From: a bacterium
GTDB lineage: Bacteria > Hydrothermota > Tepidihabitantia > Tepidihabitantales > Tepidihabitantaceae
Assembly (NCBI GenBank): GCA_035505375.1
Contig: DATJQV010000081.1
Span: forward strand, 151,423-215,422
Reading direction: 5' to 3'
DNA length: 64,000 nt
Position numbers and translations under genes: made by a program. The notes beneath the pieces were generated by a model that was not told where the DNA came from, did not search any database, and was given only the letters and a program-made list of their open reading frames with translations. Positions 20,335 to 60,756 of the stretch are shown piece by piece (within the stretch, counting starts at the first letter, position 1; each line of letters starts with the position of its first letter).

Positions 20335-20384
20335 TTGCGCGAGGAAGTCCGAATGACGATACTCGAATTCCGACTGAACCCCGA

Positions 20385-38815: not shown

Positions 38816-38830
38816 CTCGTCGCCAGCAGG
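38785..38830. repeat. Direct repeat A (ribokinase start region), partner of 40699-40745
   Basis: caaccagaacgcgaggccggtcgcctttcatctcgtcgcc versus caagcagaacgcgcggccggtcgcctttcatgctgtcgag. Confidence 0.7.
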
Positions 38831-38831
38831 A

Positions 38832-40784: not shown

Positions 40785-41153
40785 CTACTTGTCCTTATCT
40801 CTGAACAACGCCGACATGATCATGGTGGCGATGCTGACGATGAGCGCGCCAAAGAACGCGGCCCAGAACCCGCGCACGTAGAAGCCGACGTGAAACCAGT
40901 GGACGGCGATGGACGACGACAACCACAGCGTCAGGGCATTGATGACGAGCGTGAACAAACCAAGCGTCAGAATGATGAGCCCGCAGGATAGCAACTTGAG
41001 GACCGGCCTGACGAGCGCGTTGACCAGACCCAGAATGACGGCCATCACCGCATAGATCCACCACGCGTTGGCCGCGACCTTGATGCCCGGCACGATCCAG
41101 GCGGCAAGGAACAAGGCAAGCGCCGCAATCAGCCATCGGATGAGAAGCTTCAC
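40785..41153 (-). CDS. DUF360 / phage-holin-family-4-like small membrane protein
   Basis: 122 aa with 3-4 TM helices and a YvlD/DUF360-like pattern. Confidence 0.55.
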   Translation of the reverse strand: MKLLIRWLIAALALFLAAWIVPGIKVAANAWWIYAVMAVILGLVNALVRPVLKLLSCGLIILTLGLFTLVINALTLWLSSSIAVHWFHVGFYVRGFWAAFFGALIVSIATMIMSALFRDKDK

Positions 41154-41616
41154 GGTTCCTCCCTTGGTAAGCGCCGGCCAGCGCGGTGGCTCAAGTCAGG
41201 CTGCCAGCCGCGCACGCTCGGCGCAAGTCATCTTGGATTGCCACAAGAATACCGACAATCCGCCGGCCATCAAGACGCAGCCACCAGCCTGAATCCGACA
41301 TAGAGACTCACCACAAAGGCACAAAGACACAAAGAGGGTGAGGACGGAAATCGGCTCTGTCTGCTTGGTGTTCTTGGTGTCTTGGTGGTTCAATATCGGG
41401 TTTGGGGCACAAGCTTATGAGAGGCTCGTCTTCGGGCGCAGGGCTAGGCCCCTGATTCCCTCGGACGCACGGAGCATTTGGAAGCCGGTTTTGAGGCAGC
41501 CCGAACCATCCCAGTTTCTTATAAGTCCCCAAGGATTCCGACCCGGAAATCTCCTAACTTATCTCTTTTCAATTCACTATTCACTCTTTCCGTTTCTCCC
41601 CTATCCCATCCCCCCG

Positions 41617-43974: not shown

Positions 43975-45546
43975 ATGAGCGACAACCCTAGTCAAGCCGA
44001 CAGCCGACAGCCGACGACTGACGGCCCAATCCAGACCAGCGGTCATGACCGCGAAATCAGGCTGGCCAAACTCGCCAAGCTGCGCGAGGCCGGAGTCAAT
44101 CCGTATGCCTACAAGTGGGACCGGACCCACACGAACGCGAAGGCGATTGCAGAATTCGAGAGAGTCCAGAGTTCAGAGCCTTCGGGTGCCGGCTTGGGAC
44201 ACGATCCCAATTCCCCGAGCGGAATTGGGTCATGTCCCGCGCTTGAGGTTCGCGTCGCCGGACGGTTGATGTCGCGGCGGGAGCACGGCAAGACCCAGTT
44301 CGCCCACATTCAGGACGAGACCGGTAAGCTCCAGCTATACCTGCGCAAGGATACGCTGGGCGAGCAGGCGTTCGCGAACCTGAGCCTGCTCGACCTCGGG
44401 GACTTCGTGGGAGCACGGGGCGAGATGTTCCGCACCAAGACCGGCGAGGTCACGGTCAACGTGAAGGAACTTGTGCTGCTCACTAAGTCCCTCCACCCGT
44501 TGCCGGAGAAGTTCCACGGCCTGACCGACGTGGAGATGCGCTATCGGCAACGCTACGTTGACCTGATTGTCAATCAGGAGTCGCGACAGGTTCTGCTGAA
44601 TCGGATTAGGGTGACCGGTCTAGTGCGTCGGTTCCTTTCCGAGCGCGGGTTTGACGAGGTAGAGACGCCGATTCTGCAGCCGATATATGGCGGGGCCGCG
44701 GCTCAGCCGTTCGAGACGTTCTACAACGTACTCGAACAGAAGATGTTCATGCGGATTTCCGACGAGCTGTACCTGAAGCGGCTGATTGTCGGCGGGCTGG
44801 AAAAGGTCTTCGAAATCGGCAAGGACTTCCGCAATGAGGGTCTGGACCGGACGCACAATCCCGAGTTCACGCAGATGGAGCTCTACTGGGCCTATGCCGA
44901 CTACAATGACGTGCTGGCCCTGGTCGAGGAGCTGTTCAAGTTCCTCGCCACCGAGGCCTGCGGCAAGACTGAGATTCCGTTCGGCGACCATATTGTGGAC
45001 TTGGGGCGGCCATGGCAGCGGATGAAGTTCGTGGATACGCTGGCAGCGCGGATTGAGGCGGACCCGATGAAGCTCTCGATGCCGATGCTCAAGAAGGTCG
45101 CGGCGCGGTTCAACGTCCAGACCACCGAGGACATTTCGCGCGCCAAGCTGCTGGACAAGCTCTTCAGCGAGTTGATCCAGGACCACATCATTGACCCGAC
45201 GTTCGTGATGGACCATCCGAAGGTGACGACGCCGCTGGCCAAGAGCCACCGCGATAACCCGGAGTTGGTTGAGCGGTTCGAGCCGGTGGTGTGCGGCATG
45301 GAACTGGGCAATGCGTTCTCCGAGCTGAATGACCCGGCCGAGCAGCGGCAGCGGTTTGAGGAAGGCGTGGCTCTGAACGAGGAGTTCGCGACGGTTGACG
45401 AGGACTATTGCACAGCGCTCGAGTTCGGCATGCCGCCGACCGGCGGGCTCGGGCTGGGCATCGACCGTATCGCCATGCTGCTCACGAACTCGCAGACCAT
45501 ACGGGACGTCATACTATTCCCTCAACTTCGCCCGCAGAAAGAGTGA
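43975..45546 (+). CDS. lysS: Lysine--tRNA ligase (class II)
   Basis: 523 aa. An OB anticodon-binding domain and the class II motifs (FRNEG, GGLGLGIDR). The N-terminal Asp-rich extension is typical. Confidence 0.9.
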   Translation: MSDNPSQADSRQPTTDGPIQTSGHDREIRLAKLAKLREAGVNPYAYKWDRTHTNAKAIAEFERVQSSEPSGAGLGHDPNSPSGIGSCPALEVRVAGRLMSRREHGKTQFAHIQDETGKLQLYLRKDTLGEQAFANLSLLDLGDFVGARGEMFRTKTGEVTVNVKELVLLTKSLHPLPEKFHGLTDVEMRYRQRYVDLIVNQESRQVLLNRIRVTGLVRRFLSERGFDEVETPILQPIYGGAAAQPFETFYNVLEQKMFMRISDELYLKRLIVGGLEKVFEIGKDFRNEGLDRTHNPEFTQMELYWAYADYNDVLALVEELFKFLATEACGKTEIPFGDHIVDLGRPWQRMKFVDTLAARIEADPMKLSMPMLKKVAARFNVQTTEDISRAKLLDKLFSELIQDHIIDPTFVMDHPKVTTPLAKSHRDNPELVERFEPVVCGMELGNAFSELNDPAEQRQRFEEGVALNEEFATVDEDYCTALEFGMPPTGGLGLGIDRIAMLLTNSQTIRDVILFPQLRPQKE

Positions 45547-45615
45547 CAGGGGATTCGGATAATCCAGAATCCAGAGTCCAGAGCTCAGAATCCAGAATCG
45601 ACGGACGGGACGAGG

Positions 45616-45975
45616 ATGAGGGACTTCCGATCGGACCTGAGCGAACGGCTGCTAGACTTCGCGGTCAGCGTCGTTGCGCTCGCCCCGCGTCTGCAGCGCT
45701 CGGCAACCGGTCGTTTCATGGTGGGGCAACTGGTGCGTTCTGCTTCCTCAGCAGGTGCGAACTTCCATGAAGCTTGTGGTGCCGAAAGCAGAGCCGACTT
45801 CGCACATAAGATGCAGGTGGTCCTCAAGGAATTGCGCGAGACCGAGTACTGGTTGAAGCTGGTCACGCGGGCAAAACTGCTTCCGACCGATCTGCTGTCG
45901 GAACCATTGGCTGAGGCGGACGAGTTGATCAGAATCGTGGTGAAGTCCGTTGTCACTGCCAAGTCGAGACCCTGA
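45616..45975 (+). CDS. Four-helix-bundle protein (PF05635 family), copy 2
   Basis: FAVSVVALAPRL...VRSASSAGANFHEACGAESRADFAHKMQVVLKELRETEYWL. Confidence 0.7.
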   Translation: MRDFRSDLSERLLDFAVSVVALAPRLQRSATGRFMVGQLVRSASSAGANFHEACGAESRADFAHKMQVVLKELRETEYWLKLVTRAKLLPTDLLSEPLAEADELIRIVVKSVVTAKSRP

Positions 45976-46041
45976 TGTCGGGTTTGTCAATTCTGGGTTC
46001 TAGTCTCTGGATTCTGAATTCTGGACTATCCGGAGTCCGCC

Positions 46042-47259
46042 ATGCGCTTTGAATTGTTCATGGCAAGACGCTACCTGCGCGGACGGGGTCGGCGCCTCAT
46101 CTCCGGAATAACCGCGATTGCCATCGGCGGAGTGTTCGTCGGCGTTGCGGCTATCATCATCGTGCTCTCAGTCGAGAATGGATTCCACCAGGAACTTACC
46201 AACCGGATTCTCGGTGCTACGCCGCACGTAACCGTAGCCAAGTATTCGTATGAGCCGATTCCCACCTGGATCGGCGATTCGTTGCAGCGTGAGATTGCCC
46301 GGGTGCCGGACGTTGTTTCGGTCGCACCGTTCATCTACGCGAAGACACTGGTCCGCTCAGAAAACGGAGTCGAGGGAGTTGTGATTCGCGGCGTCGATCC
46401 GAAGCACGAGAAGGAGATTACCGGCATATCGGGGAATATCGTGCAGGGACACTTCGCCTTCGACTCCAGCGGCGTGGTCATCGGCGTCGAACTGGCGCGT
46501 GAGCTCGGACTCTCGATCGGCGACAGCCTGAATCTCGCCTCACCGTTCGGCGGAACAATGACTGCCTTCGGTTTCATCCCTCGCACGCGGTACTTCCGGG
46601 TGAACGGTATCTTCGACTCCGGGATGTACGAGTATAACTCGAGCTTCGTATTCCTGTCGCTTGGGGCAATCCAGCGATTCCTGGACATGGAGAACATGGT
46701 CACTGGTTTCGAGGTCCAGGTGAAGGACGTCTACGCCGCCGACCGCACGGCGCACATCATCACGCGGCAGCTCGGCTATCCGTACCGCGCCTCGGACTGG
46801 ATCCTCCAGAACCGCAATCTCTTTTCCGCCTTGCGGCTGGAGAAGGTCGTGACCTTCATCGTGCTGGTGCTGATTGTGCTGGTTGCCGCCTTCAACATCA
46901 TCGGCATGCTGATGATGATGGTTATCCGCAAGACCCGCGAGATCGGCATCCTGAAGGCGATGGGCGCCAGGCCCGCCACGGTGACACGCATCTTCGTTTG
47001 GGCCGGCGGGTTAATCGGAGTCATCGGCACCGTGACCGGCGCGGGCTTCGGCCTGCTCGCCTGCTGGCTGCTGAACAAGTACCGGTTCGTATCGCTGCCC
47101 GGCGACGTCTATTTCATCAAGAATCTGCCGGTGCAGGTGCTGGCGCAGGACTTCGTCGTTGTCTGCATCGCGGCCATCGTCATCACGTTCGCGGCCACGG
47201 TCTACCCGGCTTTGAAGGCGGCGAGGCTCGTGCCGCTGGAAGCAATCAGATATGAGTGA
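46042..47259 (+). CDS. lolE: Lipoprotein-release ABC transporter permease (LolC/LolE, FtsX/MacB-like)
   Basis: 405 aa. N-terminal TM, a large periplasmic domain and a C-terminal three-TM FtsX domain. Confidence 0.8.
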   Translation: MRFELFMARRYLRGRGRRLISGITAIAIGGVFVGVAAIIIVLSVENGFHQELTNRILGATPHVTVAKYSYEPIPTWIGDSLQREIARVPDVVSVAPFIYAKTLVRSENGVEGVVIRGVDPKHEKEITGISGNIVQGHFAFDSSGVVIGVELARELGLSIGDSLNLASPFGGTMTAFGFIPRTRYFRVNGIFDSGMYEYNSSFVFLSLGAIQRFLDMENMVTGFEVQVKDVYAADRTAHIITRQLGYPYRASDWILQNRNLFSALRLEKVVTFIVLVLIVLVAAFNIIGMLMMMVIRKTREIGILKAMGARPATVTRIFVWAGGLIGVIGTVTGAGFGLLACWLLNKYRFVSLPGDVYFIKNLPVQVLAQDFVVVCIAAIVITFAATVYPALKAARLVPLEAIRYE

Positions 47260-48013
47260 AGCGACCAGGGATGAGGGACTAGGGGCTAGGGGTCAGGTTT
47301 CGGACCCTGACCCCCAACCCCTGACCCCTGACCCCTCGGTCGTGCTCCGCGCGACCGACGTATGGCGCGTGTTCGAGACCGGGGCTGAGCGTCTGGAAAT
47401 CCTCCGCGGCGTGAACCTGGAGGTCAGCCGAGGCGAGCTGGTGGCGATTCTCGGCCCTTCGGGAACCGGCAAATCTACCCTCCTGCACGTGCTCGGAGCG
47501 CTGGATCGCCCCACAAGAGGCCGAGTGTTCCTTGATTCAGCTGACGTTTTCAGCTACCCTGAGTCCAAGCTCCACGAACTGAGAAATCGGAAGCTCGGGT
47601 TCGTGTTCCAGTTTCACCACTTGCTGTCCGAGTTCACGGTTCTGGAGAACGTGGCAATGCCGCTGCTTGTTGCGGGCGTGGCTCGGCCCGAGGCGATGGA
47701 CCGTGCGCACCGCGTGCTCGAGGACGTCGGATTCCTGACCCGGCTCACCCACCGGCCGTCCGAGCTATCGGGCGGAGAAAAGGCGCGGGCGGCAGTGGGA
47801 CGCGCGCTGGTGAATAACCCGGCGGTGATTCTCGCCGACGAGCCGACCGGCAACCTCGACACGACCTCGGCGGCGGCGCTGGTTGACCTGATGGTGCGAC
47901 TGAGCAGCGAAAGGAAAATGACGATTCTGGTAGTGACTCACAATCAGTCCGTCGCCGACCGAGCGACACGCCGGCTCCATCTAGCCGAAGGAAGACTCAC
48001 GGAGGAGAGGTGA
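47252..48013 (+). CDS. lolD: Lipoprotein-release ABC transporter ATP-binding protein LolD
   Basis: Walker A GPSGTGKST, LSGGE signature and ILADEPTGNLD. ATGA overlap with lolE. The first 30 codons run through a GGGGYTA/GGGGTCA heptamer element. An alternative GTG start lies at 47342. Confidence 0.8.
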   Translation: MSEATRDEGLGARGQVSDPDPQPLTPDPSVVLRATDVWRVFETGAERLEILRGVNLEVSRGELVAILGPSGTGKSTLLHVLGALDRPTRGRVFLDSADVFSYPESKLHELRNRKLGFVFQFHHLLSEFTVLENVAMPLLVAGVARPEAMDRAHRVLEDVGFLTRLTHRPSELSGGEKARAAVGRALVNNPAVILADEPTGNLDTTSAAALVDLMVRLSSERKMTILVVTHNQSVADRATRRLHLAEGRLTEER

Positions 48014-48116: not shown

Positions 48117-48605
48117 ATGAAACTCTGTGACCTTTGCGGCAAGGGCGAGGCGACGATGAAGGTGAGCCAGCTCGACAAGAACGGCAAGGTCACCGAGGTC
48201 TCGGTTTGCGCCGAGTGCGCGCGCCAGCGGGGGTTCGCCGAGGTCGAGCAGCTCAAGGCGGGCGCGGCGGAGATAATCGCCGAGTTGAAGACGCGCGTCG
48301 ACGAGGCCGATGCGAAACTGGTCTGCCCGAGCTGCGGCCTGACGTATGCGGAATTCAAGCGACAGGGCCGGCTGGGCTGTGCCGATTGCTACGTTTCCTT
48401 CCACGACCAACTATTGCCGGTGATACGCCGAATCCACGACGCGGTTCAACACGTGGGCCGGACCGCGAGCGGCGGCCGCAAACATGCGCAGGTCCAGATG
48501 AACATCCAGAAGCTGCGCCAGGCCCTGTCCGGTGCAATCCAGGACGAGGACTACGAGAAAGCCGCCGCCCTGCGCGACCAGCTCAAGCACGCGGAAGCAG
48601 AATGA
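48117..48605 (+). CDS. mcsA: McsA-like activator (Zn-finger plus UVR domain)
   Basis: CDLC...CAEC and CPSC...CADC zinc-ribbon pairs. A C-terminal UvrB/UvrC motif (YEKAAALRDQLK). Confidence 0.7.
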   Translation: MKLCDLCGKGEATMKVSQLDKNGKVTEVSVCAECARQRGFAEVEQLKAGAAEIIAELKTRVDEADAKLVCPSCGLTYAEFKRQGRLGCADCYVSFHDQLLPVIRRIHDAVQHVGRTASGGRKHAQVQMNIQKLRQALSGAIQDEDYEKAAALRDQLKHAEAE

Positions 48606-48699
48606 GTGCCAGAGGAATCAGAGATTCAAGGATTCAAGGGGGCCAATGCGGTGTCACTCGAATCCTGGAATCCTCGACCCCTGGATTCCTTCAGTTCCC

Positions 48700-49743
48700 A
48701 TGAACTCCACCGGCACTGTTGGCAAGTGGCTTGCGGCCGCCGGGCCGGAGAGCGATGTCGTGCTCTCGACCCGCGTTCGGCTGGCCCGAAACCTTGCCGA
48801 GGTGCCGTTCACTCACCGGTCAAAAGCGGACGCCCAGGAGCGAACCGTTGAGGCCGTTCGCCTGGCGCTCACCGATTCCGGCTACATAGCCGCCGGCGAG
48901 TTCATCGACAACGAGCGGCTTTCCGAACAGTACGGCCAATACCTGGTCGAGCGGCACCTGGCGTCGCCCGACTTCACTGCATCCAAAGCCAAGCGCGGGC
49001 TGTACTTCAGCGAAGATGAAGCTACGAGCCTCATGGTCAACGAAGAGGACCATCTCCGATTCCAGGTTCTGGCCTCGGGCCTTGATTTCCCGGAGGCGTT
49101 CACTGCGGCAGCAACGCTCGACGAGAAGCTGGAAGGACAACTTCAGTACGCGTTCTCGCCCGAGTTCGGATTCCTGACCGCGTGTCCGACCAATCTCGGA
49201 ACCGGTATGCGGGCCTCGGTTCTCGTGCACCTGCCCGCGCTCGTCATCACCCGCGAAATTGAGAAGGTGCTGCGCGGGGCGTTGCAGATCGGCCTCGCGG
49301 TGCGCGGCCTGTACGGCGAGGGCACCGAAACCAAAGGGAACTTCTTCCAGATTTCCAACCAGAAGACGGTCGGCCAGACCGAGTGGGAAATCATCGAGAC
49401 GATTGCCGACATCAGCCGGCAGATAATCCAGTACGAACGGAAGGCCCGTGGGTACCTTATGAACAAGCTCCGGGTCGAGATCGAGGACAAGGTCTTCCGT
49501 TCGCTCGGGCTGCTACGGGGGGCGCGCATCCTCACATCGGACGAGGCTATCAACCTGATTGCGAACCTCAGACTCGGGATCGCGCTCGGCATCGTAAACG
49601 AACTTAACCTGGAGCAGGTCACGCGGCTCATGGTGCTCGTCCGGCCCGCGAACCTGCAGGCAATGCTGGGCGAGAACCTGACCGCGTCGGAGCGCGACGA
49701 ACGGCGCGCCACCTTCGTCAGAGAGACGCTGGTGCATCAGTGA
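48700..49743 (+). CDS. mcsB: Protein-arginine kinase McsB (ATP:guanido phosphotransferase)
   Basis: Phosphagen-kinase C-terminal domain motifs (CPTNLGTGMRASV). The start is taken at MNSTG. Confidence 0.85.
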   Translation: MNSTGTVGKWLAAAGPESDVVLSTRVRLARNLAEVPFTHRSKADAQERTVEAVRLALTDSGYIAAGEFIDNERLSEQYGQYLVERHLASPDFTASKAKRGLYFSEDEATSLMVNEEDHLRFQVLASGLDFPEAFTAAATLDEKLEGQLQYAFSPEFGFLTACPTNLGTGMRASVLVHLPALVITREIEKVLRGALQIGLAVRGLYGEGTETKGNFFQISNQKTVGQTEWEIIETIADISRQIIQYERKARGYLMNKLRVEIEDKVFRSLGLLRGARILTSDEAINLIANLRLGIALGIVNELNLEQVTRLMVLVRPANLQAMLGENLTASERDERRATFVRETLVHQ

Positions 49744-51260
49744 GGCAGAAGGGGTCAGGGGTCAGGGGTCAGGGGTCAGAAGCTGGAAGTCAGAATAAGC
49801 AGACCGGACTGCGCGGACTTCCGTCGGTGGACAAACTTCTCAGTGACGAGACGCTCGCGCCCGTGCTCGCGCAAGTCCACCGCCGCATGGCGGTGCGGGC
49901 AATCCGAGCCTATCTCGACGAGCTACGGGAGAACCTGAAAGAGCCGCAACACGCAGACGGCAAGCCCCAAGCGTTCTCAATGGCGGAGTTGCTGCGCCGA
50001 CTCGAACGAGAGCGCAAGCCGACGCTGGCGCGCGCCATCAATGGCCTTGGCGTCATTCTGCACACTGGGCTGGGGCGCGCGCCGCTGTCCAAGGCTGCAC
50101 AGGAAGCGCTTACTGACGTGAGCGAGCACTTCTCCAGCCTTGAAATCGACATCGAGACCGGACGGCGCGGCAGCCGCTACCGGCACATCGAACCGCTGCT
50201 GTGCGAACTGACGGGCGCTGAGGCGGCGATGGTCGTCAACAACAACTGCGCGGCTACCTTGCTAATCCTGTCCGGGCTGGCCAAAGGCAAAGAGGCGATT
50301 GTCTCGCGCGGCCAGCTTGTCGAAATCGGCGGCGCGTTCCGAATCCCCGACGTGATGATGCAAAGCGGATGCAAGATGGTCGAGGTCGGCACGACCAATC
50401 GCACTCACCTGCGCGACTACAATAATGCCATCACTCCGGAGACGGCGCTCCTGCTCCGGGTTCACACCTCCAACTACAAGATTACCGGGTTCACCAAGGA
50501 AGTAAGCCTCGAAGAGATGGTAGCTCTCGCCCAAGAGGTCAATCGCTCGCCCCTCGCCCCTCGCCCCTCGCCCCTCCTCGTCGTGGACGACCTCGGTTCA
50601 GGGGCGCTCGTCGACCTTTCGAAGTACGGCCTGCCCAAGGAACCGCTGGTACAGGAATCGGTCAAGGCCGGAGCGGACGTCATCTGCTTCTCCGGGGACA
50701 AACTCATTTCCGCGTCGCAAGCCGGCATCATCGTCGGCAAGAAGAAGCACATCGACCTGCTGAAGAAGCATCCGCTCACCCGGGCCATGCGCTGCGGCAA
50801 GCTCACCTACGCCGTGCTCGAACGGACACTGGAGCTGTTCCTTGACGAGGAACGCGCAGTCAAGGAACATGCGCTCTTCCAGTTACTGCTGAAGACCACG
50901 GACCAGATGCAGGGCGAAGCCGATGAACTCGTGCGCCGGGTTCAGTCTCTTCTCCCTCTCCCTCTCCCTCCGGGAGAGGGTTGGGGTGAGGGCGACAACG
51001 TCGTGGCCAAGTTCACCGTCAGACCTGCTCTTTCCGAAATCGGCGGCGGCTCACTCGCGACCGAGAGCCTCGAATCGCGGGTAGTTGCCATCACGCCGAA
51101 GACGATGCATGTCGACGAGCTGGCCCGTCGCATGCGTCTCAATCGGCCCCCGGTGTTCGGCCGGGTCGAAAAGGGCGAATACCTGCTCGACTTCCGTACC
51201 CTCCGCCGCGACGAAATCCCCATTATCTCTTCCGCGCTCCTCTCCGCTTTCCAGCAGTAG
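49740..51260 (+). CDS. selA: L-seryl-tRNA(Sec) selenium transferase SelA
   Basis: PLP fold with the lysine in FSGDKL. A GTGA overlap with the mcsB stop. The N-terminus and two internal sites contain heptamer or palindromic insertions. Confidence 0.75.
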   Translation: MRQKGSGVRGQGSEAGSQNKQTGLRGLPSVDKLLSDETLAPVLAQVHRRMAVRAIRAYLDELRENLKEPQHADGKPQAFSMAELLRRLERERKPTLARAINGLGVILHTGLGRAPLSKAAQEALTDVSEHFSSLEIDIETGRRGSRYRHIEPLLCELTGAEAAMVVNNNCAATLLILSGLAKGKEAIVSRGQLVEIGGAFRIPDVMMQSGCKMVEVGTTNRTHLRDYNNAITPETALLLRVHTSNYKITGFTKEVSLEEMVALAQEVNRSPLAPRPSPLLVVDDLGSGALVDLSKYGLPKEPLVQESVKAGADVICFSGDKLISASQAGIIVGKKKHIDLLKKHPLTRAMRCGKLTYAVLERTLELFLDEERAVKEHALFQLLLKTTDQMQGEADELVRRVQSLLPLPLPPGEGWGEGDNVVAKFTVRPALSEIGGGSLATESLESRVVAITPKTMHVDELARRMRLNRPPVFGRVEKGEYLLDFRTLRRDEIPIISSALLSAFQQ

Positions 51261-51329
51261 CGCAGGTTTGGGCGCCACGTTGACTGAGGAGAGTGGCGCG
51301 GTACCGTATCCTACCATGAAAGGACAACG

Positions 51330-52499
51330 ATGAAATTCATTGTGATAGGCGCCGGAATGCAGGCGCGGGCAGTGGCCTACGACCTTGTGCGACAGGAAGA
51401 CGTCGACGAGGTGAGAATCTGCGACGTGGATGCGGAGCGGCTGCAGGACCTGAAACGCCGCCTGCGTAGCGCGAAGGTCAAGACGTTCGAAGCCGATGCC
51501 GGTGACAGGCGGCGCATGACGGAATTGATGAGGCCCTGCGATGTGGCGGTGAGTTGCGTCCCGTATTTCTCTAATCTTAACCTGGCGCACGCTGCCATTG
51601 CATCGCGCACGCACTTCTGCGACCTCGGCGGGAACAACGACGTGGTGCATGCGGAGCTTGCGCTGAGCGGGCAGGCGAAGAAGGCCGGCTTGACCGTGGT
51701 GCCCGACTGCGGACTGGCACCGGGTATGGTGAGCATCCTCGCTGCGGACGGGTTCTCGCGCCTGGAACGCACGGATGCCATCCACATCCGAGTGGGCGGG
51801 CTGCCGCGCCATCCCAGGCCTCCGCTCAACTACGCGTTGGTCTTCTCAGCCAATGGGCTAATTAACGAGTACGTCGAGCCGTGCCTGGTTCTGCGGGAAG
51901 GCAGGCTGACGTGGCGCGAGCCGCTGGCTGAAGTCGAGGAACTGGAATTCCCGAAGCCGTTCGGCAAGCTGGAGGCGTTCAATACCTCGGGCGGGACGTC
52001 GACGCTGCCCTACACCTACCGCGGTCGAGTGAAGACGCTCAATTACAAGACGATCAGGTATCCGGGCCACTGCGCCAAGTTCCGGTTGCTCTTCGACCTT
52101 GGTCTCACCGACATGAAGCCGACTAGCGTGGACGGCAAACTCATCGTCCCGCGTCACCTGCTGATTCACCGCCTCGAGGCAGTGCTGCCGTGGGAGAAGG
52201 ATGATGTGGTGCTGCTGAGGGTGGAAGTGAACGGGAAGGGATCAAGGGATCGAGGGATCAAGAGACCGAGTGGCGGAAGGACGATAAGTTACGAACTGAT
52301 TGACTACGCGGATCGGAAGAGCGGACTGACCGCGATGGAGCGAACGACCGGTTTCTCGGCGGCGATTGTCGCGCTGATGCTGGGCCGCGGCCAAGTCGGA
52401 TGCGCCGGGGCGTTCACCGGCGAGAATTGCGTGCCGTCTGCCGCGTACATCAAGGAACTGCGCCGGCGCGGTCTGCGTCTGCGCGTTAGCTTGGACTGA
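51330..52499 (+). CDS. Saccharopine-dehydrogenase-family NAD(P)-binding protein
   Basis: MKFIVIGAGMQARAVAYDL Rossmann N-terminus and a Sacchrp_dh C-terminal domain. An in-frame GGGATCA x3 insert encodes KGSRDRGIK. Confidence 0.7.
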   Translation: MKFIVIGAGMQARAVAYDLVRQEDVDEVRICDVDAERLQDLKRRLRSAKVKTFEADAGDRRRMTELMRPCDVAVSCVPYFSNLNLAHAAIASRTHFCDLGGNNDVVHAELALSGQAKKAGLTVVPDCGLAPGMVSILAADGFSRLERTDAIHIRVGGLPRHPRPPLNYALVFSANGLINEYVEPCLVLREGRLTWREPLAEVEELEFPKPFGKLEAFNTSGGTSTLPYTYRGRVKTLNYKTIRYPGHCAKFRLLFDLGLTDMKPTSVDGKLIVPRHLLIHRLEAVLPWEKDDVVLLRVEVNGKGSRDRGIKRPSGGRTISYELIDYADRKSGLTAMERTTGFSAAIVALMLGRGQVGCAGAFTGENCVPSAAYIKELRRRGLRLRVSLD

Positions 52500-52626
52500 C
52501 CGGGCGGCTCCTCACCCCATCCCTCTCCTCCGAGAGGAGAGGGAGAGCGAAGCGAGGGTGAGGAGGTCACAGAATCGGTTCGGCGGGTTTGACTGCCGTC
52601 GGAATCGGGTGTATACTGCTGACTCC

Positions 52627-52875
52627 GTGGCACTCAAAGCAATCTACAAGCCCGAAAACGAGTTGATGGCGAACTCGGTCCGCGACCTGTTCGAAGAGAA
52701 CGGGATTCCGGCGATGATTCGTTCGTTCCAGATGCCGGCCTACGACGGCCTCGCGCGGGTGATGCGTCCGGTCTGGGGCGAGGTGCTGGTAGAGGAGGAG
52801 GACATGGCGCGCGCCAGGGAAATCCTCGACGCTTTTCTTTCCACGGATGCCGGCGATGCCGGCAAGCAGGAGTAG
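52627..52875 (+). CDS. DUF2007-domain small protein
   Basis: About 83 aa. The pattern EANMIRSLLEENGIPA-like motif (ANSVRDLFEENGIP) matches. The start is inferred at GTG 52627. Confidence 0.45.
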   Translation: MALKAIYKPENELMANSVRDLFEENGIPAMIRSFQMPAYDGLARVMRPVWGEVLVEEEDMARAREILDAFLSTDAGDAGKQE

Positions 52876-52958
52876 CCCACCGTTGCGGCACCGGCGCCGC
52901 ACTGACGGATTTACGACTAGCTATTGATGTTTGATTAGTTGAACCGTAGAACGGAGCT

Positions 52959-55694
52959 TTGCACATGAAGTCGGTTTATCGCTTCGGCGGCGGCCGGGCT
53001 GAGGGCTCGGCGCAGATGAAGGACGCGCTCGGCGGCAAGGGCGCAAACCTGGCAGAGATGGTCAATCTCGGACTACCGGTTCCGGCCGGGTTCACGATTT
53101 CCACCGCGGTCTGCGTCCATTACATGAAGAACGGCGACTACCCGACCGACTTCGCCGGCGAGGTCAAGTCAAGCCTTGAGTACATCGAGCAGCAGGCGGG
53201 GCGGAAGTTCGGCGACCCCAAGGCCCCGCTGTTGCTGTCGTGCCGTTCGGGCGCGCGGGCGTCGATGCCCGGGATGATGGAAACCGTGCTGAACATCGGG
53301 TTGTGCGAGCGCACCCTGCCCGGTCTGGCGGCGATGACCGGCGACGAGCGGTTCGCCTATGATGCCTATCGCCGGTTGCTGACGATGTACGCCGACGTCG
53401 TGATGGAGAAGGCCGAGGGCATCGAGCCTAAAGACGGCAAGGGCATCCGGGCCCAGCTTGAGGGGTTGATGCACGCGCTCAAAGAGCGAACCGGGCGGAA
53501 GGGCGACGCTGACTTGACCGCCGAGGACCTGAAGGAGTTGTGCGCCTCATACAAGACGCGCATTGCCGAAACGTTCGGCAGGCCCTTTCCGGAGGATCCT
53601 GCGGAACAACTGTGGGGCAGCATCCAGGCCGTGTTCCGGAGCTGGAACGGCAAGCGCGCCGTGGCCTACCGCCGCATCGAGAACCTGCCCGACGACTGGG
53701 GCACGGCGGTGAACGTGCAGGCGATGGTGTTCGGCAATCTGGGAAATCTGTCCGCGACCGGCGTGGCGTTCACGCGCAACCCGGCGACCGGCGACGCCCG
53801 GTTCTACGGCGAGTGGCTGCGCAACGCACAGGGCGAGGACGTGGTGGCCGGCATCCGCACGCCGAACCCGCTGAATGCAGCCAGTCGCAACGTCCAGAAT
53901 GAGACAATGGAGAGCCTCGAGGAAGCGATGCCCGGGCTCTACACGGAGCTGAAAGAGTACCGCGACCGGATGGAGAAGCACTTCCGCGACATGCAGGACA
54001 TTGAGTTCACCATCGAGAACGGCAAGCTCTACATGTTGCAGACCCGCACCGGCAAGCGCACCGGCGTCGCCGCCATCAACATCGCGATGGAAATGCTGGA
54101 CGAAGGGCTGATCGAAGAGCGAACCGCGCTGTTGCGCGTCCAGCCCGTTCAGTTGGAAGAACTGCTGCATCCGATACTCGACCCGGCCGCCGAGAAGGAC
54201 GCAACGCTGCTAGGCGAAGGCCTGCCGGCGGGTCCGGGCGGCGCAACCGGTCGCATAGTATTCACTGCGGCCGATGCGATAGCCAGGTCACGGGGCGAGG
54301 GTGCGGCCCCGGTCATACTCGTGCGTGAGGAGACCTCGCCCGAGGACATCGACGGCATGCGGTCCGCGGCCGGCATCCTGACCGCGCGCGGGGGGATGAC
54401 TTCGCACGCGGCGCTGGTGGCGCGCGGGTGGGGCAAGTGCTGCATCGTCGGCGCAAAGGATACCACGGTCGATGCGGTGGCAAAGGAGCTTACGATCCGT
54501 GGCCGCGTATTCTCCGAAGGCGATTGGCTGACATTGAACGGGACCAGGGGACGCGTGTACGCGGGCAAGGTGGCGACGATGGACGCGACCGAGCAGCCGC
54601 GGTTCCAGCAGTTCATGGAGCTGGCCGACAAGTACCGCAAGATGGTCGTCCGCACGAACGCCGAGACGCCGGCCGACGCGGCGCTGGCGCGACGGTTGGG
54701 GGCCGGCGGCATCGGGCTGTTCCGTACCGAGCACATGTTCTACGGCAAGGGCAGCGACGTGCCGCTGTTCCTGCTGCGCAAGATGATTCTGTCGAAGACG
54801 ACCGAGGAGCGGCGGGCCGCACTCAACGAGCTGTTCGTCCACGTCAAGGCCGCGGTGAAGGGAACGCTCGAAGCGATGGACGGCTTGCCCGTGACCATTC
54901 GGCTGCTCGACCCACCCCTGCACGAGTTCGTGCCCAAGGCGGAAGACAAACAGGCGGCACTGGCCAAGTCGCTGGGCGTGACCGTTGATGACGTGCGCAA
55001 GCGCGGCGAGGACCTGCACGAGTCGAACCCGATGATGGGACACCGCGGCGTGCGCCTCGGGATTACCTACCCCGAGGTTACCGAGATGCAGGCGCGGGCG
55101 ATATTCGAGGCGACCGCCGAACTGCTGGCCGAGAAGAAACAGCCCGAGCCTGAGATAATGGTGCCGGTGACCTGTGAGGCAAAGGAGCTCGAGGACCAGA
55201 ACGCAATCATCGCGCGCGTGCACGACGGAGTCTGCCGTAAGCTGGGCAGAGAACGGATACCGCACATGGTCGGCACGATGATCGAGATACCCCGCGCGGC
55301 CCTGCTGGCCGACGAGATGGCGCACGCGGCCGAGTTCTTCTCGTTCGGAACCAACGACCTGACCCAGATGACCTTCGGTTTCAGCCGCGACGACGTCGCC
55401 TCGTTTCTGCCGCTGTACCTCGAGAGACGGCTGCTCAAGGAAGACCCGTTCCAGACCATCGACCAGGCGTCGGTCGGCGCGCTCATCCAAATCGGCGTCA
55501 AGAAAGGCCGCGCGGCCCGGCCCGGCCTGAAGGTCGGCATCTGCGGCGAGCACGGCGGCGACCCCGAGTCAGTGAAGTTCTGCTATCGCGTCGGGATGGA
55601 CTACGTGAGTTGCTCGCCGTTCCGCGTGCCGATCGCGCGGCTGGCAGCGGCCCAGGCCGCGATTGAAGGGGAGGCTGCGACGGGCAGCAAGTAA
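52959..55694 (+). CDS. ppdK: Pyruvate, phosphate dikinase
   Basis: 911 aa. ATP-grasp N-terminus, the phospho-His domain (GGMTSHAALVARGWG) and the PEP-utilising TIM barrel. Confidence 0.9.
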   Translation: MHMKSVYRFGGGRAEGSAQMKDALGGKGANLAEMVNLGLPVPAGFTISTAVCVHYMKNGDYPTDFAGEVKSSLEYIEQQAGRKFGDPKAPLLLSCRSGARASMPGMMETVLNIGLCERTLPGLAAMTGDERFAYDAYRRLLTMYADVVMEKAEGIEPKDGKGIRAQLEGLMHALKERTGRKGDADLTAEDLKELCASYKTRIAETFGRPFPEDPAEQLWGSIQAVFRSWNGKRAVAYRRIENLPDDWGTAVNVQAMVFGNLGNLSATGVAFTRNPATGDARFYGEWLRNAQGEDVVAGIRTPNPLNAASRNVQNETMESLEEAMPGLYTELKEYRDRMEKHFRDMQDIEFTIENGKLYMLQTRTGKRTGVAAINIAMEMLDEGLIEERTALLRVQPVQLEELLHPILDPAAEKDATLLGEGLPAGPGGATGRIVFTAADAIARSRGEGAAPVILVREETSPEDIDGMRSAAGILTARGGMTSHAALVARGWGKCCIVGAKDTTVDAVAKELTIRGRVFSEGDWLTLNGTRGRVYAGKVATMDATEQPRFQQFMELADKYRKMVVRTNAETPADAALARRLGAGGIGLFRTEHMFYGKGSDVPLFLLRKMILSKTTEERRAALNELFVHVKAAVKGTLEAMDGLPVTIRLLDPPLHEFVPKAEDKQAALAKSLGVTVDDVRKRGEDLHESNPMMGHRGVRLGITYPEVTEMQARAIFEATAELLAEKKQPEPEIMVPVTCEAKELEDQNAIIARVHDGVCRKLGRERIPHMVGTMIEIPRAALLADEMAHAAEFFSFGTNDLTQMTFGFSRDDVASFLPLYLERRLLKEDPFQTIDQASVGALIQIGVKKGRAARPGLKVGICGEHGGDPESVKFCYRVGMDYVSCSPFRVPIARLAAAQAAIEGEAATGSK

Positions 55695-55706: not shown

Positions 55707-57362
55707 ATGGACGGCGAACTGCAGAAGCAGCTTGATGGGGTTCTAGACCGGCATCCTGAAGTCAAGGTCAACCCGGACCGCCGGACGATGATCGCGGAGG
55801 TGGTGGCGCGGCGCGAGGCGATGGTCGCGGCGTGCGGCTGTCTTGCGACCTGGACCCCGCCCGAATCGACCGGGCGCAGCCCGCAGGACACCGTCATCGT
55901 GCGCCGGTCTGAGTCTGAGAGGAACATCGACTGGGACGCGCCGAACAACCTGCCTATTGCCCCGGACACGTTCGACATGGTCATAGCGGACGCGCTGGCC
56001 GTGCTCGCGAAGAAGCCGCGGCTGTACGTTGCGGACAGGTCGCTCGGGGCCGACCCGAGCCACGCGCTGCCGGTCAGGGTCGTTTCCGACCGGGCGCTGA
56101 CGGTCCTCTTCGCTGACAACATGTTCCGGCCGGTGCCGGCCGACATCGGCAAGTCGTGCTTTGCCTCACGCCCCTACACGCTCATCGTGCTCCCATACGA
56201 AAAGCTCGACCCGGCCCGCTACAGCGGTCGGCTGCGGAAGATGCCGAAGACCGCTAAGACGTCAGACATGGTCATCGCGATGGACATGGACCGGCGCATC
56301 GGAGTTGTCTACGGTTCGGCCTACTGCGGCAGCGTCAAGAAGCACATGTTCACCGTGATGAACTACCTGCTGCCGCTCGACGGTATCCTGTCGCTCCACT
56401 GCTCGGCCAATGAAGGGAAGAACGGTGACGTGGCCCTGCTGCTCGGGCTGTCCGGCACGGGGAAGACCACGCTCTCGGCCGACCCGCGCCGTGCCCTGCT
56501 CGGCGACGATGAGCACTCATGGGGCGATTCGGGTGTTGCCAACTTCGAGAACGGCTGCTATGCCAAGCTCATTAACCTGAGCCCGGTCAAGGAGCCGGAT
56601 ATCTACAAGGCCTGCTTCCACGAAGCGCCTTACCTTGAGCACGGGGCGATTGTCGAGAACGCGATGACCTACCCGGACGGAAGGTTCGACCTCGACGATG
56701 AGCGTCTTACGCCAAACTCACGCGGCTCGTATCCGCTGACATTCCTCTCCAACATCAAGACACCGCCGGTCGCAGGGCACCCAAAGACGATTCTCTTCCT
56801 GACCGCGGACGCGAACGGCGTGCTGCCGCCGGTTGCGCGCCTGAGTCGCAACCAGGCCATGCTCTGGTTCCTGATGGGCTACACCTCCAAGCTTGCCGGC
56901 ACTGAGACCGGCATCGTTGACCCGAAGAGCACGTTCTCGCGCTTCTTCGGCGCACCGTTCATGCCCTTGAACCCGGGTGTGTACGCCCGGATGCTCGGTG
57001 AGAAGCTGGACAAGCACGGCACCAAGGTGTACCTCGTCAACACCGGCTGGAGCGGCGGAGCGTACGGCGTGGGAAAACGGATGGATATCAGCCTGACTCG
57101 GGAAATCGTCGAGTCGGCGCTCAACGGTTCACTTGCCAGTGTCGAGTGCTTCACCGACCCCATTTTTCACCTCGACATTCCGAAGAGCTGCCCGGGCGTG
57201 CCCGACCCGGCCGTGCTCAACCCGCGCAACACCTGGCAGGACAAAGCCGCCTACGACGTGCGAGCGAAGAAGCTCGCGGCAGAGTTCTGTTCCCAGTTCG
57301 ATAAAGCGTATGGTGGAAAGGGAATCGAGGCCGAAGTCGTGCGGCAGTGCCCGGGGAAGTAG
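55707..57362 (+). CDS. pckA: Phosphoenolpyruvate carboxykinase (ATP)
   Basis: 551 aa. GLSGTGKTTLS kinase-1a motif and the PEPCK-ATP signature region. Confidence 0.9.
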   Translation: MDGELQKQLDGVLDRHPEVKVNPDRRTMIAEVVARREAMVAACGCLATWTPPESTGRSPQDTVIVRRSESERNIDWDAPNNLPIAPDTFDMVIADALAVLAKKPRLYVADRSLGADPSHALPVRVVSDRALTVLFADNMFRPVPADIGKSCFASRPYTLIVLPYEKLDPARYSGRLRKMPKTAKTSDMVIAMDMDRRIGVVYGSAYCGSVKKHMFTVMNYLLPLDGILSLHCSANEGKNGDVALLLGLSGTGKTTLSADPRRALLGDDEHSWGDSGVANFENGCYAKLINLSPVKEPDIYKACFHEAPYLEHGAIVENAMTYPDGRFDLDDERLTPNSRGSYPLTFLSNIKTPPVAGHPKTILFLTADANGVLPPVARLSRNQAMLWFLMGYTSKLAGTETGIVDPKSTFSRFFGAPFMPLNPGVYARMLGEKLDKHGTKVYLVNTGWSGGAYGVGKRMDISLTREIVESALNGSLASVECFTDPIFHLDIPKSCPGVPDPAVLNPRNTWQDKAAYDVRAKKLAAEFCSQFDKAYGGKGIEAEVVRQCPGK

Positions 57363-57410
57363 GATTGGGGCTAGGGGTTAGGGAATAGGGGTTAGAGAGG
57401 ACACGGGAGG

Positions 57411-57791
57411 ATGAAGGGTCCCATTCGGAGCTACAAGGACCTCGTGGTCTGGCAAGAGGCTATCACCTTGGTCGAGCTGACATATGGACTCGCGCGGGAA
57501 TTGCCTGCAAGTGAGAGGTTCGGACTAATATCCCAGATGACGAGAGCCGCCGTATCGGTGCAGGCTAACATTGCCGAAGGCCATGGTTCCCGACACCGGG
57601 CCGTCTATCTGAATCACCTGTCCATCAGCAAGGGTTCGTTGGTCGAACTAGAGACGTACATTATCCTGGTCGTGAAGCTGGGTTTCGTGAAGCCGGACCG
57701 CACCGCAAAGATCCAGGGCAAGATTGATGATGTCGGGAGGCTGTTGAGCGCTCTTGTGCGAGCGCTCCGCGTCTCCGTCGACCGTTCCTGA
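57411..57791 (+). CDS. Four-helix-bundle protein (PF05635 family), copy 3
   Basis: YKDLVVWQEAITLVELTYGLAR...QMTRAAVSVQANIAEGHGS...LSISKGSLVELETY. Confidence 0.7.
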   Translation: MKGPIRSYKDLVVWQEAITLVELTYGLARELPASERFGLISQMTRAAVSVQANIAEGHGSRHRAVYLNHLSISKGSLVELETYIILVVKLGFVKPDRTAKIQGKIDDVGRLLSALVRALRVSVDRS

Positions 57792-57800
57792 CCCTAGTCC

Positions 57801-58625
57801 CTAACCCCTAATCCCTAGTCCCTTACCCGCTCGCCTCTTGGGCGAGAAGAGCAGGCACAGCCCGAACAACGCGCTCGACGTTACTATGATGACCGCGCCC
57901 GCCGGGGCGTCAGTCAACCACGAGACGAGTAGTCCAATCAGGCACGACAGAATCCCAAACAACGCCGAAAGCAAGTACATGGTCCTCAGCCGATAGGTCA
58001 ACTGGTACGCTGCTGACGGTGGGTTGACGATGAGGCTGAAGATGAGGAGCCCGCCGATGGTGCTCAAGTTGGCGGTTACCGACAGGCCGCACAAGACCAG
58101 CATTGCGAAGAAGAGCGCTCGCTCGGGTATCCCGACCGCGCGGGCGATTTCCCGGTTGTAGAGCACGGCCTGGATTTCCTTGTAGAACAGCCAGAGAAAC
58201 AGCAGCACCACTACTGCCGCGCCGGCCATCACCGCGAGGTCGCGCCCGGCCACGAGCAGGATGCTGCCCCATATCAGGCCGAGAGCGTTGGCGCGTGAGC
58301 CGCGCATCAGGCCGATGGCAAGAAAGGCGAGGCCGAGCACGAGCGAGAAGATGATGCCAAGCGAGACATTGGGTTCGATGTCAGCGCGCTCGGCAACCGG
58401 GCCGACGAGGAACGACGCGGCGATGCAGAAGACCGCGGCGGTAATGAGCGGGTTTACTCCGAGCAGCAGTCCGGTTACCGCACCGGCAAAGGCCGCGTGC
58501 GACATCGCCACCCCGACAAATGGTATGTTCATCATCACGACCCAGACCCCGACGATGCCGCAGACCAGCCCTCCGAGAACTGCGGCAGCAAGCGGCCGCC
58601 AGAGTATGGCGAGTTCAGGCGGCAT
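57801..58625 (-). CDS. znuB: ABC-3 family metal (Zn/Mn/Ni) transporter permease
   Basis: 274 aa with 8-9 TM helices. Confidence 0.75.
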   Translation of the reverse strand: MPPELAILWRPLAAAVLGGLVCGIVGVWVVMMNIPFVGVAMSHAAFAGAVTGLLLGVNPLITAAVFCIAASFLVGPVAERADIEPNVSLGIIFSLVLGLAFLAIGLMRGSRANALGLIWGSILLVAGRDLAVMAGAAVVVLLFLWLFYKEIQAVLYNREIARAVGIPERALFFAMLVLCGLSVTANLSTIGGLLIFSLIVNPPSAAYQLTYRLRTMYLLSALFGILSCLIGLLVSWLTDAPAGAVIIVTSSALFGLCLLFSPKRRAGKGLGIRG

Positions 58626-60189: not shown

Positions 60190-60666
60190 TCAGGAACTCC
60201 TCGCATGGTGTGCCTCGTGTTGGTGTGCTCGGGCGAGCGGACAGCGCGCCGGGGTCAGGGTCAGGCTGCCTTGTCGTACGCCCTTGAGCGCGAGCAGGCG
60301 GTTGGCGAGTTCCCGCAGGTCGGCCGCCGGGCCGCGGAGAATCAGCACTTCGAGGCACTCGTGCCGGTCGAGATGGACATGAGTCGAGGAAACGACCTCG
60401 GCAAAGGCATCGTGCTGCACCTGCATCAGGCGCCGCGCCAACTCCGGCTGGTCGTGCCCGTAGACGTATGACAGCACGCCCACTGCTGAGCCGGACTCAA
60501 GTTCTGATTCGGCCAGCCGGCTTCGCACCAGGTCGCGGATTGCCTTGGAACGGGACCAGCCTGTCTTCCGGAGAAGGGCCTCAAACCCGGTCAGCAGCTC
60601 CGGCTCCATCGAGACGCTGAACCGCACCGCCCCGGCTTCTTCGTCATGGTTCTCGGTGTTACGCAT
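60190..60666 (-). CDS. nikR: Nickel-responsive regulator NikR-like (ribbon-helix-helix plus C-terminal metal-binding domain)
   Basis: VRFSVSMEPELLTGFEALLRKTGWSRSKAIRDLVRSRL is the RHH domain. The C-terminal domain carries His/Cys metal ligands (HVHLDRHEC...). It is embedded in a longer, meaningless ORF (60190-61593). Confidence 0.65.
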   Translation of the reverse strand: MRNTENHDEEAGAVRFSVSMEPELLTGFEALLRKTGWSRSKAIRDLVRSRLAESELESGSAVGVLSYVYGHDQPELARRLMQVQHDAFAEVVSSTHVHLDRHECLEVLILRGPAADLRELANRLLALKGVRQGSLTLTPARCPLARAHQHEAHHARSS

Positions 60667-60756
60667 CCCCAAATCGTAATACCGACGGGGTCTCCGGTCA
60701 AGCCGGGTGAGGCGAAGATTGACACGCGTGCCGACGGGAATATGCTCAGGGCGACC

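Follow-up and report, generated by a model that had tools for sequence, protein, structure and literature searches.

The window analysed here, a 64,000-nt stretch of contig DATJQV010000081.1 (assembly GCA_035505375.1, positions 151,423 to 215,422), comes from a bacterium whose closest named relatives by protein matches are 'candidate division WOR-3 bacterium' metagenome-assembled genomes (MAGs), and it carries short repeat elements inside conserved genes, three of them in selA. The selA gene, encoding L-seryl-tRNA(Sec) selenium transferase, occupies positions 49740-51260 of the plus strand. Its 506-aa product, annotated by NCBI as HTW92792.1, matches Pfam SelA (E=6e-137) and E. coli SelA (8uzw, E=5e-104), and its residues 24-63 form the Se-cys_synth_N domain. 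In an alignment with 39 homologues, the FSGDKL motif, which we take to hold the pyridoxal phosphate (PLP)-binding lysine of SelA, and ~150 further invariant columns are intact. The GTG start of selA and the TGA stop of the mcsB-like arginine kinase gene upstream of it overlap (GTGA), and the gene order LysRS, FtsX-like permease, ABC ATPase, McsA, McsB, SelA is kept in relatives. Across 48117-51260, the overlap couples selA translationally to a mcsA/mcsB-like arginine kinase pair, a clade-wide arrangement and an unexpected operon partner for a selenocysteine synthase. Besides the alignment, our comparisons draw on a table of 71 SelA sequences and on DNA from 15 related loci; a metagenome scan for SelA relatives yielded at least seven close loci.

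The original prediction, a reading of the letters of the window, had placed three in-frame repeat elements in selA, and all three are present at or within a few bases of the positions it gave. The first lies just behind the start codon and comprises two parts. Specifically, a perfect tandem array, (GGGGTCA)x4.3, is found at 49750-49779 on the plus strand (Tandem Repeats Finder, TRF; 100% perfect, consensus AGGGGTC) and encodes GSGVRGQGS, while the 18-mer AGAAGCTGGAAGTCAGAA at 49778-49795 (plus strand) is itself built of ~2.6 degenerate heptamers (AGAAGYY). Codons ~5-13 are taken up by the array and codons ~14-19 by the 18-mer, so that the earlier placement of the repeat at codons 2-12 has to be corrected. 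The array is a canonical G-quadruplex (G4) motif on the sense strand (regular-expression match at 49751-49775), and the minimum free energy predicted for its RNA by ViennaRNA is -36.1 kcal/mol with G4 formation and -6.7 kcal/mol without it. The 18-mer does recur behind a second gene, as had been noticed: the copy, at 21272-21289 on the plus strand, is identical at 17/18 positions, stands 6 nt past the stop of the open reading frame (ORF) 20385-21266, and compares with 0.03 matches expected by chance.

Among close relatives, the N-terminal SelA tails are hypervariable, with KGSRDRGIKGS, SQKPKAKSQ, ALESSNPGPLESS and HSTTGPLDH all arising from different array combinations, and locus L084 carries a longer (GAAGTCA/GAAGCTA)n version at the position of the 18-mer. 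The N-terminal element is an extension rather than an insertion. It is likely to be translated, because no in-frame ATG, GTG or TTG occurs between the GTG at 49740 and L27/P28. An alternative that we regard as unlikely holds that the heptamer arrays separating the mcsB stop from the conserved N-terminus of SelA form a spacer that is not translated, that the long ORF is an annotation artefact, and that translation begins at a non-canonical start nearer L24. More distant SelA homologues, which begin only 5-12 residues ahead of the conserved LPSVD, fit such a spacer, as does the fact that GC-rich, stop-free heptamers, most of them stop-free on both strands, hold frames open unaided. Set against this, the window, L081, L084, L085 and L166 offer no in-frame start ahead of the invariant L27/P28 other than the GTG on the mcsB stop, and of the 10 closest loci examined, two of which (L002 and L087) look like the same species, 9 have this GTG in frame. 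The spacers have four differing lengths (78, 102, 108 and 111 nt), each a multiple of three, and the NCBI annotation has the same 506-aa product. The exceptional locus, L082, lends the spacer some support, as the GTG of its GTGA does not lie in frame and its start is instead an ATG within the repeats; so does the similarly built ABC ATPase gene of the window, described below, which has a canonical alternative start.

The second element, (CTCGCCC)x4.4 at 50546-50576 on the plus strand (TRF, 100% perfect), adds a net 30 nt and encodes SPLAPRPSPL, a segment that had rightly been traced to a fourfold heptamer. It sits between a helix and the strand bearing the DDLGSG motif, carries a G4 motif on the antisense strand, and falls on a 10-aa gap in E. 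coli SelA 8uzw. In an AlphaFold2 model of SelA built from a 40-sequence alignment (mean predicted local distance difference test score, pLDDT, 64.8; predicted template modelling score, pTM, 0.56), which we used for secondary-structure placement only, site 2 is coil at residues 270-279. Among the 71 SelA sequences, only P0001 also carries the SPLAPRPSPL insert, two sequences have other inserts (NQNPGTPEPRNP and SSIANRQSP), and the remaining 67 of 71 have none; site 2 thus holds three different inserts. At the DNA level, the site is empty in L082, L084, L001-L005, L085-L090, L165 and L166, and it is filled with an identical 29-nt array in L081, L091 and the window.

The third element, at 50946-50996 on the plus strand, is palindromic and adds a net 42 nt, encoding LLPLPLPPGEGWGEGDNV. 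Its core (~50951-50992) reads CCCTCTCCC-TCC-GGGAGAGGG followed by TTGGGGTGAGGG; the left arm is (TCTCCC)x3.3, which TRF scores as 100% perfect at 50951-50970, and the right arm, GGGAGAGGGTTGGGGTGAGGG, is also a G4 motif. The element is predicted to fold as a single long hairpin (-35.5 kcal/mol, z = -4.3) and is placed by the AlphaFold model in coil (residues 405-422) between a helix (387-404) and a strand (423-434). Site 3 is empty in the DNA of L084, L001 and L087, L084 reading RRVQ-ADLQDRAG-FTVK, and no homologue at or below ~76% identity has an insert there. Alignment with orthologues, the check that the original prediction had proposed, accordingly identifies sites 2 and 3 as lineage-specific in-frame insertions. 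Site 3 is filled in 34 of the 71 SelA sequences, all within the close clade, with six peptide types, several of which are known from protein sequence alone. In DNA, the CCCTCTCCC/GGGAGAGGG type with GGGGTGAGGG is shared by the window, L082 and L085; L086 has a GGCGAAAAC...GGGACTGTCCCC...GTTTTCGCC hairpin; L081 and L091 have inverted heptamer arrays; L166 has a GGGACATGACCGAAACC/GGTTTCGGATCGTGTCCC hairpin; and L165 has a composite with a GGGGACTGTCCC core apparently within such a hairpin. Judged by eye, some of the six types look like frame-shifted or nested versions of others, reducing them to ~4 independent families, and our claim is limited to these, as the 22 state changes counted for site 3 by the Fitch method were obtained on a rough neighbour-joining tree.

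A similar structure stands outside any gene, 9 nt past the stop codon of the downstream saccharopine dehydrogenase gene. This double palindrome (52508-52565, with no strand assigned) has paired arms at 52508-52517/52556-52565 and 52520-52530/52534-52544 and is predicted to fold at -40.7 kcal/mol (z = -4.2). The right arm of the third selA element matches the minus strand of its positions 52509-52529 at 18/21, where 0 matches are expected. The intergenic palindrome is the extragenic relative of the selA element, which agrees with the earlier proposal that the one is a variant of the other.

Repeat-encoded segments are found in at least 8 of the ~52 ORFs of the window. In the saccharopine dehydrogenase gene (51330-52499), TRF finds the array (AAGGGATC)x3.4 at 52236-52262 on the plus strand, so that a repeat is present where one had been predicted, with a period of 8 instead of the proposed GGGATCA x3. 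The array, which contains a G4 motif, encodes KGSRDRGIK in a beta-turn and coincides with a 10-aa gap relative to PDB 3abi; all relatives at >=76% identity have the 8-aa insert, some in further expanded form, and none at <=74% has it. The insert predicted in the WbpP-like epimerase (12728-13765) is likewise present, at 12975-13034 on the minus strand, and what had been called a palindrome is a pair of inverted heptamer arrays (TCCTTGG.../CCAAGGA...; TRF). This site has 12-16 aa more than the PDB structures, inserts of 0-70 aa occur there among relatives, and a second hypervariable hot spot lies at residues 68-80. The epimerase gene belongs to a nonulosonic-acid/polysaccharide biosynthesis cluster (1-16400) with NeuB, CMP-sugar cytidylyltransferase, DegT aminotransferase, Polysacc_synt_2, a Wzt/Wzm ABC exporter and MBOAT.

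The lysyl-tRNA synthetase (LysRS) gene (43975-45546) holds, in frame on the plus strand, the palindrome GGGACACGATC...GGTCATGTCCC at 44196-44238, between the N-terminal helix and the oligonucleotide-binding (OB) fold. The 105-nt stretch around it (44170-44274) is predicted to fold at -50.8 kcal/mol, and the same family (GGGACAYGAYC...GRTCRTGTCCC) recurs in SelA site 3 of L166 and in intergenic DNA of L096. In L165, the LysRS palindrome site has ~50 additional repeat-derived residues. The N-terminal tail of LysRS, variable between the window and L165, contains (AGCCGAC)x3 at 43995-44015 on the plus strand (TRF, 100%).

The largest insert is that of ribokinase (ORF 37658-38872), where ~78 aa are encoded in frame at 38036-38299 on the minus strand by two tandem composite units, (CCAGAAN)x5 followed by TGCGGGGATTCACCACAAAGACACGAAGACACAAAGG, and residues 192-279 are without counterpart in ribokinase 6znx. 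A 32-nt piece of this insert recurs at intergenic 36986-37017 with 97% identity and at 41308-41334 with 93% identity. The latter lies within an intergenic element of inverted octamer arrays at 41308-41387, (CACAAAGR)x3 ... (CTTGGTGT)x3, whose left half occurs twice within the ribokinase insert and whose array family also fills the LysRS-FtsX spacer of L081 (L081 190-285). The ribokinase gene neighbours an AIPR-family (abortive-infection-type) gene at 38832-40604 and a holin-like gene with four transmembrane segments at 40785-41153; since ~40 nt are common to the longest ribokinase ORF and the AIPR ORF, the true ribokinase start is probably further downstream.

In the ABC ATPase ORF (47252-48013), inverted heptamer arrays on the plus strand, (GGGRNTA)x4 then (CCCTGAC)x4.6 at 47263-47336 (TRF), make up the first ~30 codons, and translation might alternatively begin at a GTG at codon 32. 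Comparison of six orthologues shows the N-terminal ~35 aa to be hypervariable, the rest being almost constant in length. Within 47305-47336, the two (CCCTGAC)n units whose TGA would be in frame read CCC CAA C and CCC TCG G, which is possibly a footprint of selection for an open frame. Two secreted proteins have repeat-encoded linkers: (GGCTTGN) arrays at 25550-25652 on the minus strand (TRF) precede the C-terminal domain of the protein encoded at 25416-26834, and (CGTCCCT)x4 lies at 61978-62005 on the plus strand (TRF) in the gene at 60646-62232. Tandem 126-nt (42-aa) repeats at 62485-64000 (12 copies, ~71% identity, motif ...YCANxxSDNVTVIDG...), in a large ORF that leaves the window, look like those of an ordinary beta-propeller-style repeat protein and not like a micro-repeat element.

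The window as a whole contains 18 period-7 arrays, with a sharp peak at period 7, where 0.4 are expected (at most 2 in shuffled sequences), and 10 G4 motifs, three of them in selA, where 2.8 +/- 1.7 are expected. With this excess, a chance origin of the arrays is excluded. Nine of the ten G4 motifs lie in arrays of 7-8-nt units or in the site-3 palindrome, and one in a 12-nt array at 24922-24962. Array density is 7.0 per 10 kb in intergenic and 1.9 per 10 kb in coding DNA (~3.7-fold). The load is restricted to the clade: the window and its close relatives hold 2.2-2.8 arrays per 10 kb, WOR-3-like loci at a greater distance hold 0.16, and high-GC loci from other phyla hold 0.09. Inverted array pairs occur at 47263-47336, 45559/45990 and 57362/57790. 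The repeats match no described RNA family, as an Rfam scan of the window returned tRNA-Asp only (20258-20335, the sole tRNA). Arrays of longer period are also present: 24915-25223 and 8377-8680 hold large period-12 arrays (AGTGACTCCCCC / AGTGACTTGCCG, up to ~22 copies), each upstream, on the minus strand, of one of two paralogous small ORFs, of which that at 7685-8137 is intact and that at ~24500-24800 has stops; the period-12 arrays have no spanning ORF and no Pfam or Rfam match.

We consider it probable that clade-specific micro-repeats, prone to form hairpins or G-quadruplexes, have spread through this genome and that, within genes, only in-frame, stop-free copies at tolerant loops or termini survive. 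The load would be of three kinds, namely tandem arrays of 7-8-nt units, many of them with G-tract units that create G-quadruplex motifs, inverted pairs of such arrays, and GC-rich palindromes of 40-60 nt. These would be generated or copied at a high rate and fill intergenic spacers, supplied by slippage within arrays together with a copy-and-paste or template-switch process dispersing whole units. Copies landing in coding sequence would be purged by purifying selection unless they are a multiple of three, stop-free in frame, and located in a tolerant surface loop or terminus. What remains would be 'hot-spot' loops with different, sometimes apparently nested, elements in each relative; in selA, the tolerant places would be the N-terminal tail, the loop that precedes the DDLGSG strand, and a loop of the C-terminal domain that joins a helix to a strand. 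The encoded peptides GSGVRGQGS, SPLAPRPSPL and LPLPPGEGWGEG (in the spanning peptides GSGVRGQGSEAGSQNK, SPLAPRPSPLLVVDDLGSGALVDLSK and VQSLLPLPLPPGEGWGEGDNVVAK) are most probably passengers, neutral or slightly deleterious, and not functional modules.

Several observations support such a filter. Across the FtsX-ABC-McsA-McsB-SelA block, nearly all length variation among orthologues is at repeat-encoded segments, the exception being 1-2 residues in FtsX and at protein ends. All filled intragenic alleles are a multiple of three and stop-free. Consensus units are stop-free in nine of the ten coding arrays, and the tenth, that of the ABC ATPase, has precisely its in-frame TGA units altered; a stop-codon orientation test was uninformative, most GC-rich heptamer units being free of stops on both strands. 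The inserts of sites 2 and 3 fall in coil between secondary-structure elements of the low-confidence AlphaFold model.

Other observations weigh against this reading. Individual palindrome families are at low copy number (1-3) in the sampled DNA. [quoted passage not shown] Three genomes agree in all 29 nt of the site-2 array, although three-way identity in the flanks is only 85.6% (p ~0.01), which hints at constraint or homogenisation and not at plain neutrality. CCTCG stands at the junction even in the empty site-2 allele, and pure tandem arrays such as that of site 2 could have grown in place. Finally, the AlphaFold model is poor, so that surface exposure of the inserts is putative.

The same facts give some substance to a purely local origin, in which slippage from chance seeds accounts for all the repeats, nothing is mobile, and similarities between loci reflect a shared mutational bias on GC-rich sequence. 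Sites 1 and 2 are perfect tandem arrays, the copy number of the saccharopine dehydrogenase array varies among relatives, and the pre-existing CCTCG seed and the negative searches for a transposase and for target-site duplications are all as slippage would have it. We nevertheless hold a local origin to be decidedly improbable, as unlinked loci have composite, non-tandem pieces in common, which argues that whole units have been copied elsewhere. Such pieces are the 32 nt shared at 97% between the ribokinase insert and 36986-37017, the 18/21 match between the selA and intergenic palindromes, and the single 40-nt palindrome family present in LysRS, in a relative's SelA and in intergenic DNA. In addition, unrelated, sometimes apparently nested palindromes occupy the same loop in close relatives, for which slippage alone is insufficient. 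The dispersed near-identical copies support mobility of the repeats. The 'systematic colonisation' of conserved genes announced by the original prediction is therefore sustained for its extent, with saccharopine dehydrogenase, epimerase, ribokinase, LysRS and ABC ATPase all affected, and qualified for the mobility that the word implies, which is putative.

About equally doubtful, in our judgement, is the further possibility that the spread of micro-repeats is the work of an undescribed class of mobile micro-elements in the WOR-3-like clade, integrating site-specifically at structured DNA positions, coding sequence included, by machinery other than a classical transposase. Site-specific integration would explain how selA, LysRS and the epimerase each receive unrelated families repeatedly, apparently in nested form, at the very same codons. 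The machinery might be linked to the multi-copy genes for 23S-rRNA-intervening-sequence proteins (bAvd-like), which are bracketed here by inverted heptamer arrays. The window contains two such genes (23S_rRNA_IVP, PF05635, bAvd-like; ORFs 45616-45975 and 57411-57791), bracketed within 45559-46025 by (AATCCAG)x5 ... (ATTCTGG)x5 and within 57362-57828 by (GGGGNTA)x4 ... (CCCTANN)x5. With their inverted arrays, they look like cassettes with long flanking stems, and in L082-L084, arrays of ATTCTGA type also lie 3' of the orthologous gene.

An adaptive role of the nucleic acid itself appears highly unlikely to us. It would have the G4s and hairpins in selA and at gene junctions regulate expression, through ribosome pausing at domain boundaries, mRNA stability or processing, or uncoupling of selA from mcsB. 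All three selA elements contain canonical G4 motifs, site 3 has a strong predicted hairpin, arrays stand at junctions of co-directional genes, and, as given above, conservation is higher in the site-2 array than in its flanks. The four-unit arrays also fit the four-unit preference reported for G4-forming GGGNATC repeats (PMC4692102). Yet close relatives with fully conserved SelA cores have empty loops or unrelated sequences at these positions, the orientation is inconsistent (the sense strand is G-rich at site 1 and C-rich at site 2), and the same elements occur in unrelated genes and spacers.

We give still less credence to phase variation, by which the heptamer arrays would be contingency switches, a change of one unit shifting the frame and toggling selA and other genes. 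Units that are not a multiple of three do lie near the 5' ends of selA, ABC ATPase and LysRS, and Lin and Kussell, as cited in PMC4692102, tie N-terminal enrichment of simple repeats to phase variation. The classical contingency repeats are long perfect arrays, with copy-number variants that shift the frame, in non-essential and usually surface genes; here, the arrays have only ~4 units, the affected genes are housekeeping or essential (LysRS, ABC ATPase), the site-2 copy number is the same in three diverged genomes, and every relative recovered is in frame.

The inserts are not assembly artefacts, and the chance that assembly or annotation created them is next to nil: although short contigs (P0363, P0364) start right after site 3 and one contig of the Joint Genome Institute (JGI), L167, starts within selA, the identical 506-aa SelA is found on a separate JGI contig of 108,792 nt (P0370) and on the NCBI MAG contig (353,500 nt), L167 shows 100% identity across the 4,649 nt from 50851 to 55499, a stretch in which site 3, the saccharopine dehydrogenase repeat and the intergenic palindrome all lie, and, in other samples, the site-2 insert is found in two further genomes (L081, L091) and at least 10 relatives carry the site-3 element. 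All three selA elements are thus present in separately deposited assemblies; their absence from independent assemblies was what the original prediction had named as refuting it. Public assemblies often break in or beside selA, P0363 and P0364 being fragments of 85 aa and position 1 of L167 corresponding to window position 50851; that contigs begin right after site 3 or inside the gene shows that assemblers struggle there. As a result of such breaks, the full-length SelA of the window falls in a 90%-identity cluster represented by an 85-aa fragment, and the homology search missed the exact match.

Candidates of another kind were also considered. The mitochondrial genes of yeast have GC-cluster and 'byp' elements, which are small, mobile, GC-rich palindromes that enter protein-coding genes and stay there; the ribosome skips byps, for which being in frame is not a requirement. 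Every insert here, in contrast, is stop-free and a multiple of three, which argues for ordinary translation, and ribosomal bypass or RNA-level excision was rejected on this ground. An intein or intron is ruled out on size and sequence.

Of the described systems, Rickettsia palindromic elements (RPEs; Ogata et al. 2000) offer the nearest analogy. As presented in PMC10969869 and PMC3184786, RPEs are ~100-150 bp long, form ~10 defined sequence families, are confined to Rickettsia, and have as their hallmark palindromic repeats in frame within conserved genes. The likeness to that account is that hairpin repeats occur both between genes and in frame within many unrelated conserved housekeeping genes, the host protein being left intact and the insert compatible with its fold; in-frame insertion of this kind is seen here in selA, LysRS, ribokinase, epimerase and saccharopine dehydrogenase. 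The hairpin feature holds for site 3 and the LysRS stretch, whereas sites 1 and 2 are tandem arrays and not palindromes. The elements of the window also differ from RPEs as so described, a comparison by description and not by sequence, in that the inserts are mostly 24-70 nt (30-45 nt in selA, up to 264 nt in composites), the host is WOR-3-like, pure tandem heptamer arrays and G4 motifs are present, and different families pile up at the same loops. By analogy, they appear to work like RPEs without being members, since size, sequence and lineage differ.

The arrays themselves resemble the GGGNATC heptamers of Xanthomonas and Nostoc (Rehm et al. 2015; PMC4692102) and cyanobacterial short tandemly repeated repetitive (STRR) sequences, which are tandem heptamers with G-tracts, prefer ~4 units, form inverted pairs, spread genome-wide, and are enriched in non-coding DNA between co-directional ORFs (PMC4692102). 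The counterparts here are the 4.3 and 4.4 units of the selA arrays, the G4 motifs predicted by ViennaRNA and regular expression, the inverted pairs, and the non-coding excess. The units, however, are GGGGTCA, GGGCGAG, GGGATCAA, CCAGAAT, GGCTTGC, GGGRCTA and the 8-mer AAGGGATC and not the published consensus, and several families (CCAGAAT, GGCTTGC) lack a G3 tract. [quoted passage not shown]

Repetitive extragenic palindromes (REPs) and bacterial interspersed mosaic elements (BIMEs) are similar in being imperfect GC-rich palindromes of 20-60 nt that lie just past stop codons, as the copy at 52508-52565 does, and that are sometimes clustered or nested (PMC3733652). REPs, however, are extragenic by definition, are usually high-copy, in many cases bear GTAG or CGTC tags, and are in some cases mobilised by RAYT transposases (PMC3733652). 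The selA and LysRS palindromes, in contrast, are intragenic and in frame, their families have 1-3 copies in the sampled DNA, inspection by eye found no consistent tag, and the window contains no RAYT. A full-text literature search on WOR-3 and repeats returned no paper containing the term WOR-3. Three features appear to be new, namely G4-type heptamer arrays in frame within essential enzymes, the repeated filling of the same loops, apparently with nesting, by different families, and the host clade.

For work on metagenomic databases, the elements carry a practical warning, in that they break assemblies, inflate the 5' ends of ORFs and distort protein clustering. They also provide a natural mutagenesis map of insertion-tolerant loops in SelA, LysRS, ribokinase and epimerases of the short-chain dehydrogenase/reductase (SDR) family, and a test bed for how ribosomes and polymerases handle G4 and hairpin structures within reading frames. 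If the pattern holds genome-wide, small repeats would routinely join essential proteins in this clade, making it the second natural system of the kind after Rickettsia, and the repeats that do so would include G4-forming heptamer arrays, which published surveys have treated as non-coding.

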